Shown: positions 19,505-64,000, counted from the stretch's first letter. The stretch is 64,000 nucleotides of DNA from Mercenaria mercenaria (GCF_021730395.1 NC_069372.1:64348221-64412220), one strand, 5' to 3'. Notes: generated by a model not told the origin, from the letters alone. Numbers and translations: made by a program.

Positions 19505-20790
19505 GTTTTTGGGGACGCTCCATCAAAGGTCAAGGTCACAGGGACCTGAACATGGAAAACCATCCATTTCTGATCACTAACTTTTGAAACACTTGATCTA
19601 GAACGTTGAAACTTCATTGGATGATTGGACATGCAAAAGAGATGACCCCTATTGATATAGGGGTTACTCTGTGAAAGGTCAAGGTCACAGGGGCCTGAAC
19701 ATGGAAAACCATTTCCAATAAATAACTTGAGAACTACTTGGCCCAGAATGTTGAATCTTCATAGGATGAGTGGATATGCAGAGTAGATGGCCTCTATTGA
19801 TTTTGGGGTCACATTGTGAAAGGTCAAGGTCACAGCAGCCAGAACATAGAAATCCATTTCAGTAACTTGAGAACCATTTGATCTAGAACCTACAAACTTC
19901 ATAGAGTGATAGTACTTACAGAGTAAATGACCCCTATTGTTTTTGGTCATTCCATCAAAGGCCAAGGTCACAAGAGCCATCTCTCGGTAACACTTCGTTT
20001 TTGATCAATAACTGTAGAACCATTTGATCTAGAGCCTCAAACTTCATAGGGTGATAGGTGATAGTTTAATGTTTGGGTTTACTAGATCAAAGGTCAAGGT
20101 GACAGGGACCTGAACATGGAAAACCGTTTCTGGTCAATAACTTTAGAATTCTTAACCCAGAATTTAGTTTATACATAATTTATTTTAGGTCGATTGTGAA
20201 GGAAGTTCTACACTTGATATTAATCACTCTCGACACCTCGTTCCTGATGGAATCCATCGCCACGAGGGTATGAGAGAAAATGCCAGTTTCCCTTTTAATG
20301 CTGAGCGCCAAGCAAGGGAGCTACTGATACCATTTTCACGTCTTTTGTATGACGCGACCGGGGATCGAACCCACAACCTCCCGCACTCGAAGCGGACGCT
20401 CTACCACTAGGCTATCGGGGCGGTTTAAATATATAACTTGACCTAGAATATTGAAACTTCATAGGATGATTGGACATGTAGAGTAGATGACTCTTATTGA
20501 TTTTTGGGTCACATAATCAAAGGTCAAGGTCAACAGGACCAGAACATAGAAAACGGTTTCCGATCAGTAACTTCAGAACCATTTGACTCAGAACCTTAAA
20601 ACTTGATAGTACTTACAGAGTAGATGACCCTTATTGTTTTTGGGGTCACTTGAGCTATGGTCAAGGTCGCAGGGGTCTGAACATGGAAAACTGTTTCCGA
20701 TCAATAACTTGAGAACTGCTTGACCCAGACTGTTGAAACTTCGTAGAATGATTGGACATACCTATTGCAGCCAACCTTCATTGTCTCTTT
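19505..20790 (+). repeat. Tandem array of ~150-bp units × ~9 (…atcaaaggtcaaggtcacagggacctgaacatggaaaacc…cttgatctagaac.ttgaaacttcatagg.tgattggacatg.a.agtagatgacccctattg…). It is interrupted by a SINE at 20190-20425.
   Basis: Direct reading. Each unit carries AAAGGTCAAGGTCA. Confidence 0.9.
20190..20425 (-). mobile_element. tRNA-derived SINE (same family as 527-870) inserted into the 150-bp array.
   Basis: The reverse complement of 20341-20420 folds as a tRNA-like head with anticodon loop TTCGAGT and a degraded acceptor stem. The body matches the 600-700 region. Confidence 0.75.
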
Positions 20791-54490: not shown

Positions 54491-56597
54491 GACGTTTTAG
54501 TTTAAAAAGGAGAAAAGTACAATTAAAATAAAAGCGTTAGAAGCGAAGCTCTTATAACTAGACAGCCAGAAATTCAAATTTAGATAACACAAAAATGTGT
54601 ATGCAAAAGAATGTTTGTTTCGGAATAAAATAAATGCATTTTGCATATTTATATCTATGTGAAGGTGTTTGAAATTAACTCTTTAACTTGTAACGTTAAG
54701 TGCCTAATGCTAAAATTTTAGTCAAAAGCGAAACACCTAATGCTGAATGTCAAGTATATATGCAGACAAAAAAATAAAATTTATAGAAGGCCGGTGCACC
54801 ATAAAAATAACAAAAAATCATACATATTTAATGCTTAATGTCAAATACGTAATGCTAAATGCAAAATACGTAACGCTACATACTAAATACAATATGCAAT
54901 ATACTTAATACTAAACGCCAAATGCTGAATGACAAAAAGCTCATGCTTATTGCCAAATGATTAAAGCTAATAATCAAATTCCGTAAATGTAAGAGTTAAA
55001 GATATCTTTCTCTTAAACTAATGACTGTACCTTTTAAATACTTGAAAACATTTAAACTGAAAAATATTCTGCAGTTGATTTGAAGCAATACCATGTTTTA
55101 CTGGTCATTTGAAAATGGATTCGAAATTGTTTTTTTTTTTCAATTATATCTAAGAAAATTATTTAAACACAGTTATGTTAAGAAAGTCATTGACTAAAGG
55201 ATACATCCATTCATTGGTATATTAAGCCTTTTATTTGTGTAATCACGAAGCAATAAGCATTCGGCTTTTATTGTTTCGAACTTCACATTTAACAATTATT
55301 TTACTGTTCCATTTTTTCAATCAATATGTGAAATTTAGCATTTTGCATTATCTATTTGTCAGTTAGTATTTTGCATTAGACACATAATTCTAAATATAAA
55401 TTGTAAATTGCCAAATACCAGGTGTCTTACTGTTTTACTTTGTAGTGCCATGCGTTTGTAATCTTTTATATTCAAAGATATCATGTGAAATTTGTTTGGT
55501 GTGAAGTAATCATTTTTATCTACCGGTAACATAAAACTGTACTTAAATGTTAAGACAATTATCATTTCCATTTCGTATGTAACATTTATCATTTAGCATG
55601 ATATCCCGGTCTTCTGTAAACTATGGAAGGCCGGTGGGCCATGATCATTTCCAAAATGTTAATGAACAATGTCATTTGCCAAGTAATTAGTGTTTAGTTT
55701 TGATTGTAAAACGGTGATTTCCAGGGATAAATGCTATTTGGTAATTGCAAAATGCCGAACAATAAATGCTAAATGTTAATTGCTGTTAAGTGCGTACTCA
55801 AGGAGCTGAATATATTAATGCATCCTGTAAGTCATTGGTCTAGAACTTTAGCTCGTTTTCTTAACATCTAATAGGCTCATTTCCCATGACCGGTATTATT
55901 CTTTTAGTTCAGTCTAGTAGAACAATAATTAAAAGTTACATTCGTTAGTTCAAGAGGTAAACTCATAAAGTTGAAGACTTTGATGATTAACATTTATCAT
56001 TTGGTAATTACTAAATCATCTATTTGACATTTAGCATCTGACATTAAACATTAAATACATGCATTTGACATGAAGAAAAACCATTTAGCATTAATTATTT
56101 GTCAATTAGCAATTAGCATGGAGCACCGGCCTTACATAAAATAGACTAACATACATGCATTTGCTTTTTCCCTCTAAAACATATTACTGTTTTGTACGAT
56201 AAATTTTGATAATATACCCGCCTCATCTTTACAGTAAGTAAGTACGTGTATCTTTGAAATCTATTAATCCATAGTTTTAAATGTATTTCAGACTCAAACA
56301 GTTTAACAAGTACTATTTCATTACATTTTCCCTAGAATTTATTGAATACCTATATCAAGGCTTTGTTGAAAAACGGCGTTAAGCCCTAAACAAACAAACA
56401 AAATATACCAGGGTTTCAGAAATCTGCAAATGTATTGGTAGCCCATTGGGCTACTAATATCTTAGTCTAATAGCCCGAACATTTTGGTTTATTTGGCAAA
56501 ATATGTTTAGTGCATGTACGCTATAGTTGGATGGATATAGGTTTCATAATTTTAGTCATACAATTTTGAGACTATTCTGGTGAAGTATAGGTGTCAG

Positions 56598-57818
56598 ATG
56601 GCTGGTAAGGAGGTACAGGAGTATGTGGAGTGTACTATGGGATCACAGAGGATCACTCGGGTGGCCACACCTTCTACAGGTGCACGTAAACGACACATGT
56701 CAGCACCAGGGTCAGGTGAATTGTCAGCTAAGAAGTTAAAAAGCCTAAATCTTGAGCCTTTGCAATCTCTTGACTTTGAAAGTGATCGTAGAACTGTGAG
56801 TGCCAAGCGTAAGGTGAACCGCAGATTGTATTCCAAGGAGTCCAACAGCAGTGAGGATAGTGATGATGATGACAGTCAGTTTGTGGTAACTAGTGCAGAA
56901 GTACATGTGAACGCTAGTACAAGTGTGGAACAACTGATAAGTAAGCTTTCTATTGACATGCATAAGATGTATGAGAACTTACATAGTAGAATTGAGGCAT
57001 TAGAATCAGGTCTTGAGGATAAAATTGTGCACAGGATATCCAATGTGTTTGACAAACGTTTTAGAACTGAAGTGAATAAGTTGGAGAAGAAAGTTGATGA
57101 TAAGATTGATGCAAAATTTGACACATTTAAGGAAGAAATTAAAGGTGAAATAAAGGCTGAGGTGAATTCAGAACTTGGCAAGTTGAATAATAAAATTGAA
57201 CAGTTTTCACAACAAACAGGAAGTGAAGTGTCGAGAGATTTTGATCGTAGTGTGGCAATACTAAACCTCCCAGAGTCTAGAGGTGAGAACATTGAAACCA
57301 AAGTGAATGCTTTAGTCCGTGAAGGCTTGAAAATTCGTGACATTAGAATTTCAAGTGTGTCTCGAAAACGAGCAGCCAATAAAGACAGTGACGGAGTGGT
57401 GATTGTGAAGTTTTCTTCTAGGGAAGATAAGCAGAAAGTTATGTCTGCCAAGAAATCTCTGAGAGACAGTAGACAGTATGCACAAGTTTACATAAACCAT
57501 GATCAGCCTAAAAGCGAACGTGTCTTTGCAAACAATTTTAGAAAAATTCTTTCTGCAATGAGGACTGGGGATTCCAACCTTGAAATGCGTGGTACGCATG
57601 TCGTGAACCGGAGGGACTCATCTGGTAGGCGTGACAATGATAACGGTCGAGATAATCGAGATCGTCGTGGTGATAGCCGTGGTAACCACGGTGATGATAA
57701 CAGCAGGAGAAATGACTACCGTGATCGTGATTCTGAGTGGAGTTCTGCGGGTAGACATCGTAATTCCCGTGGCTCGGGTCGTGGAGGACCTGGTCGTGGG
57801 TACAATTCCCGTAGATAG
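56598..57818 (+). CDS. LINE ORF1p, L1-type. The N-terminus may be GTG 56580 or ATG 56598. It has a coiled coil, an RRM-like domain ('SVAILNLPESRGE…VVIVKFSSREDKQKVMSAKKSL') and an RG/RD-rich C-terminal tail. It ends at TAG 57816-57818.
   Basis: The ORF is from the six-frame track. Its domain logic resembles L1 ORF1p (Transposase_22): coiled coil, then an RRM whose 'NLRIIGVPE'-like and 'IIVKF' elements are preserved. Confidence 0.75.
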   Translation: MAGKEVQEYVECTMGSQRITRVATPSTGARKRHMSAPGSGELSAKKLKSLNLEPLQSLDFESDRRTVSAKRKVNRRLYSKESNSSEDSDDDDSQFVVTSAEVHVNASTSVEQLISKLSIDMHKMYENLHSRIEALESGLEDKIVHRISNVFDKRFRTEVNKLEKKVDDKIDAKFDTFKEEIKGEIKAEVNSELGKLNNKIEQFSQQTGSEVSRDFDRSVAILNLPESRGENIETKVNALVREGLKIRDIRISSVSRKRAANKDSDGVVIVKFSSREDKQKVMSAKKSLRDSRQYAQVYINHDQPKSERVFANNFRKILSAMRTGDSNLEMRGTHVVNRRDSSGRRDNDNGRDNRDRRGDSRGNHGDDNSRRNDYRDRDSEWSSAGRHRNSRGSGRGGPGRGYNSRR

Positions 57819-59474
57819 ATTCTTGCGGGGTTTTGGAACGTTCGAGGTTGGAAAAGTGATCCAAATTCTGACAATAGTGTTTTTAGATCATTTTGTTTGA
57901 AGAACTTTTCTTGTGACATTTTAGGGGTAGCTGAAACACACCTGGTAGGACTTGATGAGCTCAACATTACAGGTTACAAGTGGATCGGGCATAACAGATC
58001 TCTCTTACACAAGAATGCTCGAACTGGGTCCGGCGGAATTGGCTTTCTGATAAAAAATGAACTGTATAATGATTTTGATGTTTCAATTTTAGACAATTCA
58101 GTTGAAGGAATTCTTTGGTTAAAGTTAGTACATAAAGTTACAAGTTTCACAATTTTACTATGTGTCTGCTACCTTCCTCCTGAAAATTCTTCAAGGCATT
58201 TTGATGTTATTTCTTTTTACGACAATCTTTTATGTAATTTTTATGAATATCAGAAAACTGGTTTACCTTTTATTTGCGGAGATTTTAATAGTAGATGTGG
58301 TGAGCTAGAAGATATGATTATTGGGGTAGATAATGTTAGACCTCGGAAAGTTGTTGATTTTAAAGTGAATAATTATGGTGAATTGTTTATAGATTTTTTA
58401 ATAAATACAAACATGTGTATGCTCAATGGTCGATTTGACGAGATGTTCAATACTTATACGTCTGTTTCAACTAAAGGACTTTCAGTGGTTGATTATTGTA
58501 TTTGTAAACACCAGAACTTAAATGTTTTTACTGATTTTAAGGTTATTCCACCATCTGATTTAGTGGGTAGTAATAGCCCTATTTGTGGTGTGATGTCAAC
58601 TTGTTTACCAGATCACTCTGTTTTACTGTGGAATATTTTGCTTGATATTGATACATGTACTGAAAATTATGATTGTAATTTGCTTGAAAATAACAAAGAT
58701 TCAGAGTCATATGTTAAATTTGACTTGTCAAAAATTCCAGATAATTTTATGAAGGATGAAACCACTTTGTTGCTTTTAAATGAAAGTATTGTAAATTTAG
58801 AACAAGGTTTACAAAGACAACATGATATAGATGCTGTATATACTCAGTGGTGTGATATTGTTAAACAAAATATGTACAATAATGTGCCATATAAAACGTT
58901 CAAATCTGGCTCTCAAAGTAAGCGTTTTAAGCCAGGTAAGCCCTGGTGGAATCCTGTATTGTCTGAAATGTGGAGCTCTGTCTGTCAGCTGGAAAGAAAT
59001 TGGCGTAAAAGTAATGGTAATGTAAATTGTAAAAGTAACTTTGTACAAGCAAGAAAACAATTTGATAGGGAGGTTCAAAGAGCTAAACGGACATATTGGT
59101 ATAATCTACAAAATGATATTATTGCTGAATGTAATGATAATAATACATCATTTTGGAAAACTGTAGGTAAAGTTGGGGTTGGCTGTTCTAAGCCATCAAA
59201 AATCCCTGTAGAAATTGTTGATAGTGATGGCTCTATCACGCATGACATTGTCAAGGTTCTTAGAAAATGGCAGTCTGATTTTAGCTCACTTTTTAATGTT
59301 AACCATGGAAATACATCTGGTCACTTTTATACAATGTCGTCCAATGATGATAGTCTGAGAATCTTTAACGATAATATTTCAATATTGGAAGTGAAAAAAG
59401 CCGTTGACAATGCCAAGCGTGGTAAGGCTTCTGGGTATGATACAATTCCAGCTGATGTTTTGAAAAATGATACC
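57819..59474 (+). CDS. LINE ORF2 part 1. APE-type endonuclease (N-terminus ILAGFWNVRGW…; …GDFNSRCGELE…) plus linker. It is in frame directly after the ORF1 TAG, has no ATG of its own, and ends at an in-frame TAA at 59475-59477.
   Basis: Frame 0 is continuous from 57819. The ORF listed at 57897-59477 is the same frame. Confidence 0.8.
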
Positions 59475-59477
59475 TAA

Positions 59478-61331
59478 GTATTATTTTTGCATGCACTGTA
59501 TAATGTTTGTTTTAATTCTGGTAGTTTACCATCTATTTGGAGCAAATGCATCATAAATCCAATACCTAAGTCTTCTACATTAGATCCAAGAGACCCTCTT
59601 TCATACAGAGGAATAGCTTTAGCCCCTGCTATGTACAAGATGTTTTGTTTTATATTAAATGATAGATTGACTTCTTGGTGTAATGTAAATGACAAGATTG
59701 TGGATGAACAGAATGGCTTTAGGAAGAATCGTAGTACGGTTGATCAGATATCGTCCCTTACGTCAATTATTGAGACTCGTAAGGCACTCGGGAAATCGAC
59801 TTTCTGTGCGTTCATTGATTTTCGTAAGGCGTACGATTCAATCAATTGTCATAAGCTTTGGCAGCGTCTTTCATATATTGGAGTGTCCGGTAAATTGTTT
59901 TCTTGTTTAAGGTCATTGTATTCATCCACATACTCTTGCGTTAGAGTCAATAATTTACATACAGATTGGTTTGATGTAACGTGCGGGTTGAGACAAGGTT
60001 GTGTTCTTTCGCCACTTTTATTTAATCTGTATATAAATGATCTTGCTACATTTATAAAAGCTTTGAATGTTGGTGTAACTATAAATAATGAGAAAGTTTG
60101 CCTTCTCATGTATGCTGATGACATAGTTCTTATGGCAGAGTCAGCCAAGGATTTGCAACTTTTATTGAACGCCTTACATGATTGGTGTGGTACAAATGAT
60201 ATGACTATCAATGTTAACAAAAGTAATGTTGTGCATTTTAGAAAACAATCTGTTCAGAGGTCTTCTTTCAGTTTTATGTGTGGTAATCAAACATTAGATG
60301 TAGTTGATAGATACACTTACCTTGGTTTAGTATTAAATGAATTTTTAGACAATAGTATTACTGCCAAGGCTGTGGCACAAAGCGCTGGTCGTGCTCTAGA
60401 CTTACTAATTGCAAAAAGTAAATCGGCAGGAGGTTTCCCACATGATGTTTTTAAGACATTATATGATTCATTGGTGTGGCCTGTTATTGAGTATGGTTCT
60501 AGCATTTGGGGCTTCAGGGCTCGCTCATGTATAGACACAGTCCAGAATAGGGTAATGCGCTTTTTTCTGGGAGTAGGCAAGTACTCACCTACTATGGGTT
60601 TATATGGTGAGCTGGCTTGGGATCCTCCGCAGGTCCGTCAATTAGTCTCTGTGTACCGGCTTTTGGTACGTCTTTCCCGCACCAATGAATCTCGTTTGAA
60701 TAAACGAGTTGCGCTTTGGTCTATGGCCTTGGCTGGCAGTCGTTGTAAGAACTGGTTCTTTTATGTCTGTCAGAAAATACATGATACTGGTATGTTAAAT
60801 ACATGTATAAATTCACCAATTATATCTTCCAATGTGCAGAAACTTAAAGATCTTGCCATGTGTAAATTTAAACAAGACTGGTTAACAAAAATAAATAATA
60901 ATACTGGTCCTTCTAGAAATGGTGGTAACAAACTTCGTACTTATTGCACTTTTAAATCAGAATATGTTGTAGAAAAATACTGTTCAATGATTTTACCGCC
61001 TTCACATAGATCAGCATTTTGTAAATTTAGACTAGGTGTTGCACCTCTCAGAATAGAAACTGGGCGCTATGAAGGTCTCAGATTTGATGACAGAATTTGT
61101 CCTTTCTGTAATGATGTCGAAACTGAAATACATGTACTGATGCAATGCGAGGTATATAGTGATTTAAGAAATGCCTTGTTCAGCAAAGCTTGTGATATTG
61201 ATGAAAATTTTATGTCACTCACTGATAATGATAAAACTAAGTTTATATTTTCCAACCATGATGTTATAAGGGTTAGTGCCAAAACCTGTTTTAGTATACT
61301 TAATAGAAGAATGTGTTTTCTTTGTAAATAA
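59478..61331 (+). CDS. LINE ORF2 part 2. Reverse transcriptase (FIDFRKAYDS; GLRQGCVLSPLLFNLYINDL; MYADDIVLMAES) plus a C-terminal Cys/His motif (CPFCNDVETEIHVLMQCEVY).
   Basis: Canonical RT motifs A, B and C are read in the 614-aa ORF. It is in the same frame as part 1. Confidence 0.85.
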   Translation, partial: VLFLHALYNVCFNSGSLPSIWSKCIINPIPKSSTLDPRDPLSYRGIALAPAMYKMFCFILNDRLTSWCNVNDKIVDEQNGFRKNRSTVDQISSLTSIIETRKALGKSTFCAFIDFRKAYDSINCHKLWQRLSYIGVSGKLFSCLRSLYSSTYSCVRVNNLHTDWFDVTCGLRQGCVLSPLLFNLYINDLATFIKALNVGVTINNEKVCLLMYADDIVLMAESAKDLQLLLNALHDWCGTNDMTINVNKSNVVHFRKQSVQRSSFSFMCGNQTLDVVDRYTYLGLVLNEFLDNSITAKAVAQSAGRALDLLIAKSKSAGGFPHDVFKTLYDSLVWPVIEYGSSIWGFRARSCIDTVQNRVMRFFLGVGKYSPTMGLYGELAWDPPQVRQLVSVYRLLVRLSRTNESRLNKRVALWSMALAGSRCKNWFFYVCQKIHDTGMLNTCINSPIISSNVQKLKDLAMCKFKQDWLTKINNNTGPSRNGGNKLRTYCTFKSEYVVEKYCSMILPPSHRSAFCKFRLGVAPLRIETGRYEGLRFDDRICPFCNDVETEIHVLMQCEVYSDLRNALFSKACDIDENFMSLTDNDKTKFIFSNHDVIRVSAKTCFSILNRRMCFLCK

Positions 61332-61852
61332 TGTCCATTGTATTTTACTTTTAGTACATATGTACATTATTTTTATCATTTATGTAGAATATTACTGCTA
61401 ATCTGTTCATTTCAGATCTGATCTGAGGTGATACTTAGTTTCTTAACACCATTTTTTCCCTAGCGCATTAGTGCATAACTTCCTTGTCAGTGTCTTAGTT
61501 CTAGAATCCTTTTATGGCAGATTTTAGTCTTGATTAGCAGTTATAGTCTACATTTTATCATGTAGATATTAATACTCAGTCATATTGTTGTAATGTATAA
61601 TATGATTGAGATTATGTAGTCTCTTGTAGTTCTTTGTGACTATATATTAAGTAAGGTGCCATTGATTTGTTAAACTGTTTTAATGTTTGATTTGATGTCT
61701 ATTACAAATCTTTTAAGATTGGCCATACATGTATTTTATTGAATTGATTTCATGTATTATATGTAAGCATGTGATGGAATAGACAATAAACTTTGATAAA
61801 CTACATGTGTTGTTATAAATATTGTTCCATAAAATAGCAATTATGCACCTGT

Positions 61853-62087
61853 CAATATTTTGCCCGCCCGGGGGAGCGGCGGGCATACACGGGACTTTAG
61901 ACAGAAGACCATTCCCGACAGGCGGGAATTTGACAAACATTTGATGTACCAACCAGGCTCTAGGGTGGGATTTAGACAAAAAAGGCTGTCCCTAGGGTGG
62001 GGATTTAGACAACAACATTTTTGAAATGTCAAATTCCCCCGGGTCGGCCCGCCGTCCCCCTGGGCGGGCAAAATATTGACAGGTGCA
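61853..62087. mobile_element. 235-bp MITE with ~32-bp TIRs (TGCACCTGTCAATATTTTGCCCGCCCGGGGG) and a 3-bp TSD TTA, so PIF/Harbinger (Tourist-like).
   Basis: TIRs and the TTA at 61850-61852 and 62088-62090 are read directly. Confidence 0.7.
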
Positions 62088-64000
62088 TTATCGTTAATCA
62101 CTTTTTCGCCTGGATTTTTTCATTTGAGTTTAATGGATAAAATTAGTCATAAATGGGAATTCTTCTACCATTAGTTATTGCAAACTGACAATAACACAAA
62201 AAATTGTCATCAATTTCTATAAACTTACCAGTCTCTTACAGTATCAATTGCATTTATAGGTTTTATGTTTACGACAATATAAGCGTATTATTTAAACTTG
62301 TATAAAACATGTTACTATTCCATTCAAAGCTTACTGTTGCCTAATGGATGATATTTTTGTCAGGAGTTTGGAGAACATCTAAATAAAAATTGATGAGAAG
62401 ATAACGTTTAAAATACCAGATTTTTTTTTACAATCGTTTTTTTTTGCATGTAGTCCACATTGTACATTATTAACTATTAATTCACAAGAACACCTTTCTT
62501 GAACATTTATAATCATCATACCTTCTAGTATTATGCTTTATATTATATGAAAGTTGAATGTGACTCATTCTGTACAAATTACTCTTATATCACAGCAGTA
62601 ATTTGGTAAATTATAAATGTCAGTTTTTTTAATATTCAAATTATTACAATGCCTGTAAACGTACAGAATAGAGTGGCTTCTTATTCATTATACTTTGGGC
62701 ATAGATATTATTATGTTATTTCTATCCTACTGGTACGTTTTATAACGTACGAATTAAAGATTAGACAATTACTAAATTTACACTGTGTAAATGATTTCTT
62801 CTTTAATGTCGTTTATCACCGTCATCTATATATAGAAATATCACATTTATATACAAATATATAAATGTTGTAATTTCTGCTGGGTTCTCAATTAAAGTAT
62901 GGATGACGAATGGATGACATTGTATTCGTCATACACATATTTAATAGAAAACCAGTCTGTGTTTTCCATATAGAATAAAATATTTAACGAAGTTTGAGCC
63001 AGGAATAATTATCTCATTTAATGTCTCCTTTAACGTAGTACGTCTGCAAACTCGCTAGAATCACTGGCTTTCAACCTTGTATGAATGTCATTGAATTATC
63101 AAAGAAATGAAAAATACGTCTCATACATTATTCGGTTCTCCTCACAGTTATCCGTGTCAAATTGATGAAAGTAAATTTGAATTTTGTATTCAAGATACAT
63201 TAGTAATGGGTTCTGTCATATAATGAACTTGATTTATAAATCAAGGGAATTGGATTATCAAGAAACAAGGACGTGCTTATTGATTTCTTATAAAAATTCT
63301 AACTTACCGTCAAAATCTAAAATGTCTTCCTTGTCATGGTATGATAACGGCATAATTTTGTTTTTGGAATGATTTTCTTCACTGAACAATGACATGCGCT
63401 AGATTATAAATTCAATAAATTTATGTGTATTTTTGTGACTTTCAAAAGCACAGTTTATGATCGTAGAATGAATAAAAAAGTATACTGGTTATATTCAATT
63501 AAATAGCATTATTAACGGCTTAACTAGATGTATTCTAAATCAAAAGTATGTGCGTTTGCTAATTGCTAAAATAATGGCAAAATAAAAGTTGTGCTAGAAT
63601 ACGTGTTAAAGATATGCAATTGCCATCGTTGACTAAAACATTTCATCTTTAGGTTTTTACATAAAATGGAGAAATTCCTCATGCAAGGTATTTAATTTTA
63701 CTAAAAATATACATAAATAGTGTGTGTAGAGCTGCATTTGTAATTAAATGTCATGCAGTAACTGTCAATAGTTAAAAACAAAAACTTCCAATTGTTGAGT
63801 GATGTACACATTATGTATATTGATAAATGGAATACTTTTGTATTGCAATTAACATATGATACATAAACATGATCGGCCATGTTGATTTATTTATAGATGT
63901 AAGTTTGTTAGTTATACGTTTGTGTCACTTGAAAAGACAAATACCAGGCTCAATTTTCACTAGACTATCAATTTCTGAAATTTAGTGTCAGAACTGATGG

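Follow-up and report, generated by a model that had tools for sequence, protein, structure and literature searches.

How ORF2, the second of the two open reading frames (ORFs), is translated from the bicistronic RNA of a long interspersed nuclear element (LINE), including the rarity of this translation and the action of its product in cis, has long been asked, and partial answers are available for human L1 and SART1 only. Termination-reinitiation is known in both elements, in SART1 at the sequence UAAUG (PMC5972666, PMC1965478), and the ORF2 AUG of human L1 can be replaced by other sense codons (PMC5972666; PMC1965478). Here we analyzed a LINE copy on the plus strand of a 64,000-nt stretch of the genome of the clam Mercenaria mercenaria (GCF_021730395.1 NC_069372.1:64348221-64412220; the whole stretch is referred to as the window). 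Its ORF1 and ORF2 share one frame and are separated by a single UAG at 57816-57818, a candidate site of programmed readthrough.

For elements without long terminal repeats (non-LTR elements), the reviews on recoding and reinitiation (PMC5972666 among them) describe the UAAUG of SART1, reinitiation in L1, frameshifting in HeT-A and TART and 2A peptides, and no stop-codon readthrough. A readthrough similar to the one considered here was suggested for the Group 3 LINEs of Paramecium (Guerin et al. 2017, PMC5405496), likewise for a LINE with an apurinic-type endonuclease (APE). These elements differ from the clam LINE by a ciliate host with different code usage, by an ORF1 ending in a zinc finger and by another reverse transcriptase (RT) clade, and readthrough was put forward for them on the basis of consensus sequences, with neither stop identity nor the codon following the stop (codon +1) tested (PMC5405496). 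In a full-text literature search UAG readthrough was not described for any animal LINE; the Paramecium elements were the sole precedent found. In the Arabidopsis ATLN elements of the plant L1 clade, orf1 and orf2 are reportedly in frame with an amber codon between them, and Noma et al. (DNA Res 7:291, 2000) are said to have proposed its suppression, a comparison to be taken as a lead.

A close parallel to the arrangement of the clam LINE is gammaretroviral gag-pol (Moloney murine leukemia virus, type III). In both, a single in-frame UAG lies between a nucleic-acid-binding structural protein and an enzymatic polyprotein, UAG is the preferred stop and is most often followed by G, an initiator is missing from the downstream ORF, and a fusion is expected as the product, at a level of a few percent (PMC13517186). 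A second parallel concerns the ORF1 protein (ORF1p). CR1/L2 elements also carry an L1-like type II ORF1, with a coiled coil, an RNA recognition motif (RRM) and a CTD (C-terminal domain), outside the L1 clade (Metcalfe & Casane 2014, PMC4120745). In single-ORF subgroups of CR1/L2 such domains are located at the 5' end of one ORF. These subgroups have no junction stop, unlike the clam LINE, and they indicate that a covalent linkage is tolerated (PMC4120745).

Conserved stop codon at the ORF1/ORF2 junction

The frame extending from 56580 to 61331 comprises 1584 codons and is closed by a terminal TAA at 61329-61331. Translation confirmed the initial annotation of this DNA in that only two internal stops were present, the TAG at codon 413 (57816-57818) and a TAA at codon 966 (59475-59477). 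With 65% A+T in the window approximately 7% of random codons would be stops, and about 110 stops would be expected by chance in this frame versus the two internal ones observed. The openness of the frame thus far exceeds chance. The LINE was present once in the window, and neither tblastn nor blastn found a second copy within the 64,000 nt.

ORF1 (56598-57815, 406 aa) is terminated by the UAG. ORF2 (57819-61331), as defined by translation and Pfam, consists of 1170 codons plus the terminal TAA, contains one nonsense codon and is devoid of an initiator. It abuts the UAG in the same frame, and translation showed that the sequence ILAGFWNVRGW begins in the very next codon, as had been noted before.

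Relatives of the element were gathered by endonuclease or ORF1 homology and independently of the junction, metagenome loci being retrieved via a pattern in the GDFNSRCG motif. The loci originated from metagenome contigs, from mollusc-like assemblies in ENA and from a chromosome assembly of Dreissena polymorpha. In a first search with the junction region a small number of proteins crossed the junction, and many endonuclease-only proteins had their first residue at most a few positions from GFWN.

Of the 38 relatives examined, 34 had a stop in frame at the junction. The endonucleases of these 34 elements were 45-65% identical to that of the window copy. When lineages are separated at 70% amino-acid identity, the elements represent approximately 28 of them, and their third codon positions are nearly saturated (identity 0.39). 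The stop occupied the same position in 31 elements and was located 1-6 codons upstream in the other three (L020, L021 and L023). The motif [V/I/L]xxGFWNVxGW follows directly after the junction stop in the family.

The identity of the stop was strongly biased: TAG in 32 elements, TAA in two and TGA in none. Among the ORF2-terminal stops of intact members, by contrast, seven were TAA, one was TAG and one was TGA (Fisher p = 6e-6, lineage counts). Since TAG and TAA are separated by a single transition and the members have diverged to the extent given above, the scarcity of TAA implies selection for UAG.

In 25 of the 34 elements the ORF1 profile was matched by the ORF that immediately precedes the stop in this frame. 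At least six elements were intact save for the UAG, with a profile-positive upstream ORF and a complete ORF2 of 1160-1185 aa (L086, L012, L013, L016, L020 and L023); in L086 an ORF1 of 410 aa is followed by TAG and then by 1172 aa. The remaining four of the 38 relatives carried a sense codon at the junction (CAG in L001; AAG in L004, L087 and L088). All four are decayed copies with several stops or frameshifts, and both CAG and AAG are one mutation away from TAG. L089, a member of the same subfamily as L087, has TAG at the junction.

Endonucleases at 35-41% identity or less (L035-L044 and beyond) had no junction stop and carried Met residues there, which indicates that the trait is specific to the clade. 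Judged from the sequences compared, the junction UAG is a family trait. The comparison supports the earlier suggestion of a programmed TAG, used for readthrough or termination-reinitiation, and speaks against the alternative offered with it, a recently broken single-ORF element, since the stop is kept by 34 divergent elements and the relatives with a sense codon are all decayed. An ORF2 initiated by ATG in another frame, which would point to simple decay, was seen in no relative.

Start of ORF2 and endonuclease domain

In none of the 34 elements does ORF2 have an ATG as its first codon or close to it, and the first in-frame Met of ORF2 varies across the family from residue 21 to residue 199. 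For the window copy the absence of an early ATG was correctly described, but the first in-frame ATG is residue 166 rather than approximately 150.

Codon +1 was one of the four Val codons (GTC, GTT, GTA and GTG being about equally frequent) or else ATT, ATA, ATC, TTA, TTG or CTG, with a single GCT and a single TGG; it was never ATG. It thus encodes Val, Ile or Leu with synonymous variation, and the endonuclease's first beta-strand starts two residues later. This pattern is that of an aliphatic residue under selection at the amino-acid level and not that of a near-cognate start codon. A synonymously free Val/Ile/Leu codon argues for its decoding as an amino acid by elongator tRNAs. Conservation at synonymous sites after the stop was restricted to a slight GCG-GGG preference at codons 3-4.

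The apurinic-type endonuclease domain spans 57819-58574. Pfam Exo_endo_phos matched residues 6-245 of the piece after the TAG (E 2.6e-5), the AlphaFold2 model reached a mean confidence (pLDDT) of 82, and the E, N, D and GDxN residues were invariant in the endonuclease alignment. In the model, beta-strand 1 is formed by residues 3-7 after the stop (AGFWN) and includes the conserved catalytic Asn; a functional endonuclease would consequently need translation from the codon adjoining the stop. The family thus appears to be a natural case in which ORF2 cannot start alone, given that there is no AUG, that strand 1 begins two residues past the stop, and that the UAG is held despite saturated silent sites.

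The protein P0003 is given by the gene caller as starting with MKIGFWN, but the DNA (L003, 274-285) reads TAA-TTG-AAA, an alternative start straight after the stop. Prokaryote-style callers print a TTG, GTG or ATT after the junction stop as M and thereby create a false initiator Met. Judging by their N-terminal sequences the same applies to P0016, P0020, P0027, P0036, P0039, P0048 and P0072, the case confirmed at the DNA level being P0003/L003 only. Two gene models of Mytilus coruscus (P0063 and P0085) join the tail of ORF1 to ..ETHL.. and skip approximately 37 junction residues, which looks like a fake intron avoiding the stop. Finally, four proteins filed under metagenome-assembled genomes (MAGs) of 'Candidatus Thiodiazotropha' (P0204, P0208, P0210 and P0223) were 49-56% identical to the RT of the window LINE and probably stem from misbinned contigs of the lucinid host. 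The practical lesson is that gene calling goes wrong on such elements in three ways, by an initial M that is false, by an intron that is fake, and by LINE fragments of the host being filed under symbiont MAGs.

Proposed mechanism and alternatives

We consider it fairly probable that the UAG is subject to programmed readthrough resulting in an ORF1p-ORF2p fusion. This reading is favoured because the UAG is conserved, the frame is strictly shared, codon +1 is constrained in the manner of an elongation codon and there is no AUG. Most ribosomes would stop at the UAG and yield ORF1p, and a small fraction would decode it via a near-cognate tRNA (Gln, Tyr or Lys) and carry on, giving an ORF1p-linker-ORF2p fusion. 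According to the structure model described below, the disordered tail of ORF1p would be suitable as the flexible linker. A high ratio of ORF1p to ORF2p would be set by the rarity of readthrough, as for Gag and Gag-Pol in gammaretroviruses. The family would then most likely be an animal LINE clade that uses an in-frame UAG in the manner of retroviruses, a variant of the readthrough suggested for the Paramecium LINEs.

Several observations weigh against readthrough. The initial annotation had envisaged a structured element just 3' of the TAG. Here, RNAalifold on a codon alignment of 21 members predicted no shared base pairs, whichever window was taken, over the 330 nt that follow the stop. The minimum free energy at 45-50 nt after the stop differed from that of other ORF2 windows by a z of about -1; compared with dinucleotide shuffles, the mean z of the first ~50 nt was only -0.45 (p 0.05), with heterogeneous folds lacking a common architecture. 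The shrinkage of z against shuffles suggests that the folding signal mostly reflects local composition. The clam family therefore differs from gammaretroviral gag-pol in that neither a pseudoknot nor another conserved 3' structure was detected.

The nucleotide context counts on both sides. A G follows the UAG in about two thirds of the members (21/30), which recalls type III readthrough sites and speaks for readthrough; a purine at +4 is not the leakiest context in mammalian assays. The hexanucleotide is mostly UAG-GUN, with UAG-GUA in four members, UAG-GAU in one and UAG-GGU in one. The type III readthrough sites of Beier and Grimm are UAG-GGV, -GUA and -GAU (PMC13517186), and the window copy with UAG-AUU falls outside these listed hexanucleotides, a further difference from gag-pol. 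Other known stimulatory contexts are UAG-CAR-YYA and UGA-CUA/CGG. In addition, type III UAG-G contexts generally require a 3' structure (PMC13517186). ARAGORN found no amber-suppressor tRNA (CUA anticodon) in the window. Furthermore, a non-LTR LINE, unlike a gammaretrovirus, has no protease to separate the fusion. A fusion would tether the endonuclease to trimeric ORF1p, where it may or may not be active.

The main rival is AUG-independent termination-reinitiation as in human L1, in which the ribosome would stay on the RNA after termination and resume at or next to the adjacent codon, so that ORF1p and ORF2p would be made as separate proteins. We regard it as rather unlikely, albeit worth serious consideration. 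SART1 and human L1 provide the precedent (PMC5972666, PMC1965478); they too are bicistronic LINE RNAs in which translation of ORF2 is coupled to termination of ORF1, with an AUG that is dispensable in L1. The direct abutment of stop and ORF2 in all members fits this model, and so does the failure to find a structure stimulating readthrough. However, reinitiation gives no reason for UAG over UAA or UGA, yet UAG was found in 32 of 34 junctions versus mostly TAA at the ends of ORF2. Nor does it agree with codon +1, which is under amino-acid selection, with GTG no commoner than GTC, GTT or GTA, and never ATG.

The clam family also differs from SART1 and human L1 by having neither AUG nor overlap nor spacer, by a frame that is always shared and by the conserved UAG. 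Overlap or adjacency of stop and AUG (UAAUG, AUGA) occurred in none of the 34 elements. Motif 1 (UGGGA) of the termination upstream ribosome-binding site (TURBS) was present within 100 nt upstream in 1 of 32 members only, and RNAalifold revealed no SART1-like conserved structure flanking or downstream of the junction.

A third possibility is that the ribosome terminates at the UAG and elongation then resumes at the next codon with an elongator tRNA. This would lead to a separate ORF2p starting with Val, Ile or Leu, without initiator tRNA, AUG or fusion. Such a process would jointly explain the constraint on codon +1, the absent start codon and the absence of a structure stimulating readthrough; we nevertheless rate it as improbable.

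The preference for UAG could also have a cause at the RNA level. In one such scenario UAG/G acts as a 3' splice acceptor, and a spliced subgenomic RNA drops ORF1 and joins an upstream AUG exon to codon 1 of ORF2. UAG is the sole stop codon ending in AG, the commonest next base is G (the 21 of 30 members mentioned above), in accordance with the acceptor consensus YAG/G, and the sequence ATGGCTG/GTAAGG at the start of ORF1 in the window looks donor-like. We consider this scenario very improbable. A polypyrimidine tract is missing (with approximately 40% pyrimidine, positions -18 to -4 are T-poor), two members have TAA, and the donor-like site of the window would join out of frame, exon 1 comprising 7 nt. 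Moreover, no ORF1-less progeny was present among the loci, though spliced templates should yield some if the cis-preference of LINEs holds.

An equally slim chance is given to A-to-I editing that would turn the amber UAG into UIG, decoded as Trp, in the way of the amber/W site of hepatitis delta virus. The triplet preferred by adenosine deaminases acting on RNA (ADAR) is UAG, which would explain its use over UAA and UGA. However, for most members the prediction leaves the stop's A without a pairing partner (mean pairing probability 0.18 versus 0.55 over all positions), and templates once edited would be copied to TGG, which was found at the junction stop in no relative. Both editing and splicing would clash with the maintenance of TAG on the assumption that ORF2p works in cis, on the RNA that encodes it.

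Simple decay, i.e. a single-ORF LINE with a TAG that is as accidental as the second stop of the window copy, has a negligible probability: single-ORF CR1/L2 subgroups with ORF1-type domains do exist (PMC4120745) and a continuous ORF crosses the junction in four relatives (P0002, P0014, P0018 and P0030), but these crossing copies are all decayed and carry CAG or AAG there, 34 divergent elements, of which at least six are intact, have a stop in the junction codon or beside it, and the site of the second stop has a sense codon in every homologue spanning it, so that a broken single ORF is excluded as the reading of the TAG.

If readthrough holds true, these LINEs would have converged on the retroviral Gag/Gag-Pol solution. 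ORF2p would be made solely in fusion with the RNA-binding ORF1p, which would provide a physical basis for cis-preference as well as a fixed stoichiometry. The junction is short and portable.

Nonsense codon and reverse transcriptase domain of the window copy

The second internal stop of the window copy, the TAA at 59475-59477, is of a different nature. A database search with the segment around it yielded more than 1,300 relatives, and 129 of the listed proteins spanned the site, including two other Mercenaria proteins. All 129 carried a sense codon there (A 48, S 32, V 13, T 12, C 9, L 9, others 6). As had been suspected before, the TAA is private to the window copy and, on this comparison, is private decay; its simplest origin is probably a change of TCA (Ser) to TAA. 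The initial annotation had placed it between the APE and RT domains, but it is located within the conserved motif ..GxDxIPxEVLKND[T][A/S]V.FLH.LFN.CF of the N-terminal extension of the RT, 28 codons before the RVT_1 match.

Since this private TAA interrupts ORF2, the RT can no longer be produced and the window copy is dead. The description of the copy as young therefore holds only insofar as it carries one nonsense mutation and no frameshift.

The RT domain (59562-60329), with YADD present, corresponds to residues 29-284 of the piece that follows the TAA and was matched by Pfam RVT_1 (E 1.7e-37). The element thus shows the features of an APE-type LINE, namely an N-terminal apurinic-type endonuclease in ORF2 and an RT domain with YxDD. 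In the PDB sequence search, the only comparison made for this purpose, R2 proteins and human L1 ORF2p were equally distant (E 1e-22 to 1e-19), and the RT was clearly nearer to neither the L1 nor the R2 clade. Close to the C-terminus a Cys-His motif, CPFCNDVETEIHVLMQC (CX2CX7HX4C), was read from the sequence at 61098-61148.

ORF1 protein

The product of ORF1, when started at the ATG at 56598, was 100% identical to the RefSeq protein P0001 of Mercenaria mercenaria. This ATG is the likely start because the N-terminal motif YVExxMxSQ is common to the homologues. An exact look-up of the protein returned no record in the contig index.

The homologue search gave nine matches, and the structure model was built on a shallow alignment of 13 sequences. 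In the AlphaFold2 model a disordered N-terminus is followed by a long helix of approximately 97 residues (aa 110-206; 56925-57215) and by an RRM/CTD-like fold with the order beta-alpha-beta-beta-alpha-beta (aa 218-341; 57249-57620). A disordered tail rich in Arg, Asn and Gly (aa 344-406; 57627-57815) reaches up to the UAG. In the family alignment this tail varies in length and is likewise rich in Arg, Asn and Gly.

The model thus contains the coiled coil, RRM and CTD architecture of an L1-type (type II) ORF1p, in agreement with Foldseek, where the top 11 matches were human L1 ORF1p including the trimer structures 2yko, 2ykp and 2ykq (E 4.5e-6). At the sequence level no Pfam family, Transposase_22 included, matched at E <= 0.1, and the PDB sequence search gave no match.

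3' end and flanking sequences

Comparison with relatives suggests that the region 61332-61803 is the probable 3' untranslated region (3' UTR). It contains the motif CAGATCTGATCTGAGGTRATA at 61413-61433 within an 11-bp hairpin (about 61405-61437). The motif was also found in L007 (4687), L010 (4322), L011 (3624) and L012 (4601), within 4 mismatches though the proteins are only 50-60% identical. The hairpin is probably the stem-loop recognized by the RT of a 'stringent' LINE.

In seven relatives (L013, L015, L016, L023, L086, L004 and L001) the 3' terminus consists of GAGACnTTAATAAACTA with a short microsatellite behind it, which is (TCTG)n, (TCTATG)n or (TCTTGTA)n. By comparison, the window copy ends at 61787-61803 with a diverged form of the terminal motif (TAAACTTTGATAAACTA) and has no microsatellite tail. 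Upstream of 56598 the element's 5' end was not located, and a target-site duplication of this copy was not found. With the terminal motif plus microsatellite and the hairpin in the 3' UTR, the 3' ends of the family resemble those of CR1/L2-like 'stringent' LINEs, which is a likeness and not a clade assignment.

Approximately 30 nt 3' of the LINE end, an element resembling a miniature inverted-repeat transposable element is located at 61835-62096. It is GC-rich and has terminal inverted repeats of 59 nt that are 85% complementary. On the other side, an (AAAC)3.8 microsatellite at 56388-56402 precedes the ORF1 ATG by about 200 nt; it may represent either the insertion target or another retroposon's tail. 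Elsewhere in the window, ARAGORN reported two 72-nt sequences resembling tRNA-Ser(CGA), at 525-596 on the plus and at 20350-20421 on the minus strand; they are short for a Ser tRNA and may be heads of short interspersed nuclear elements or pseudogenes.

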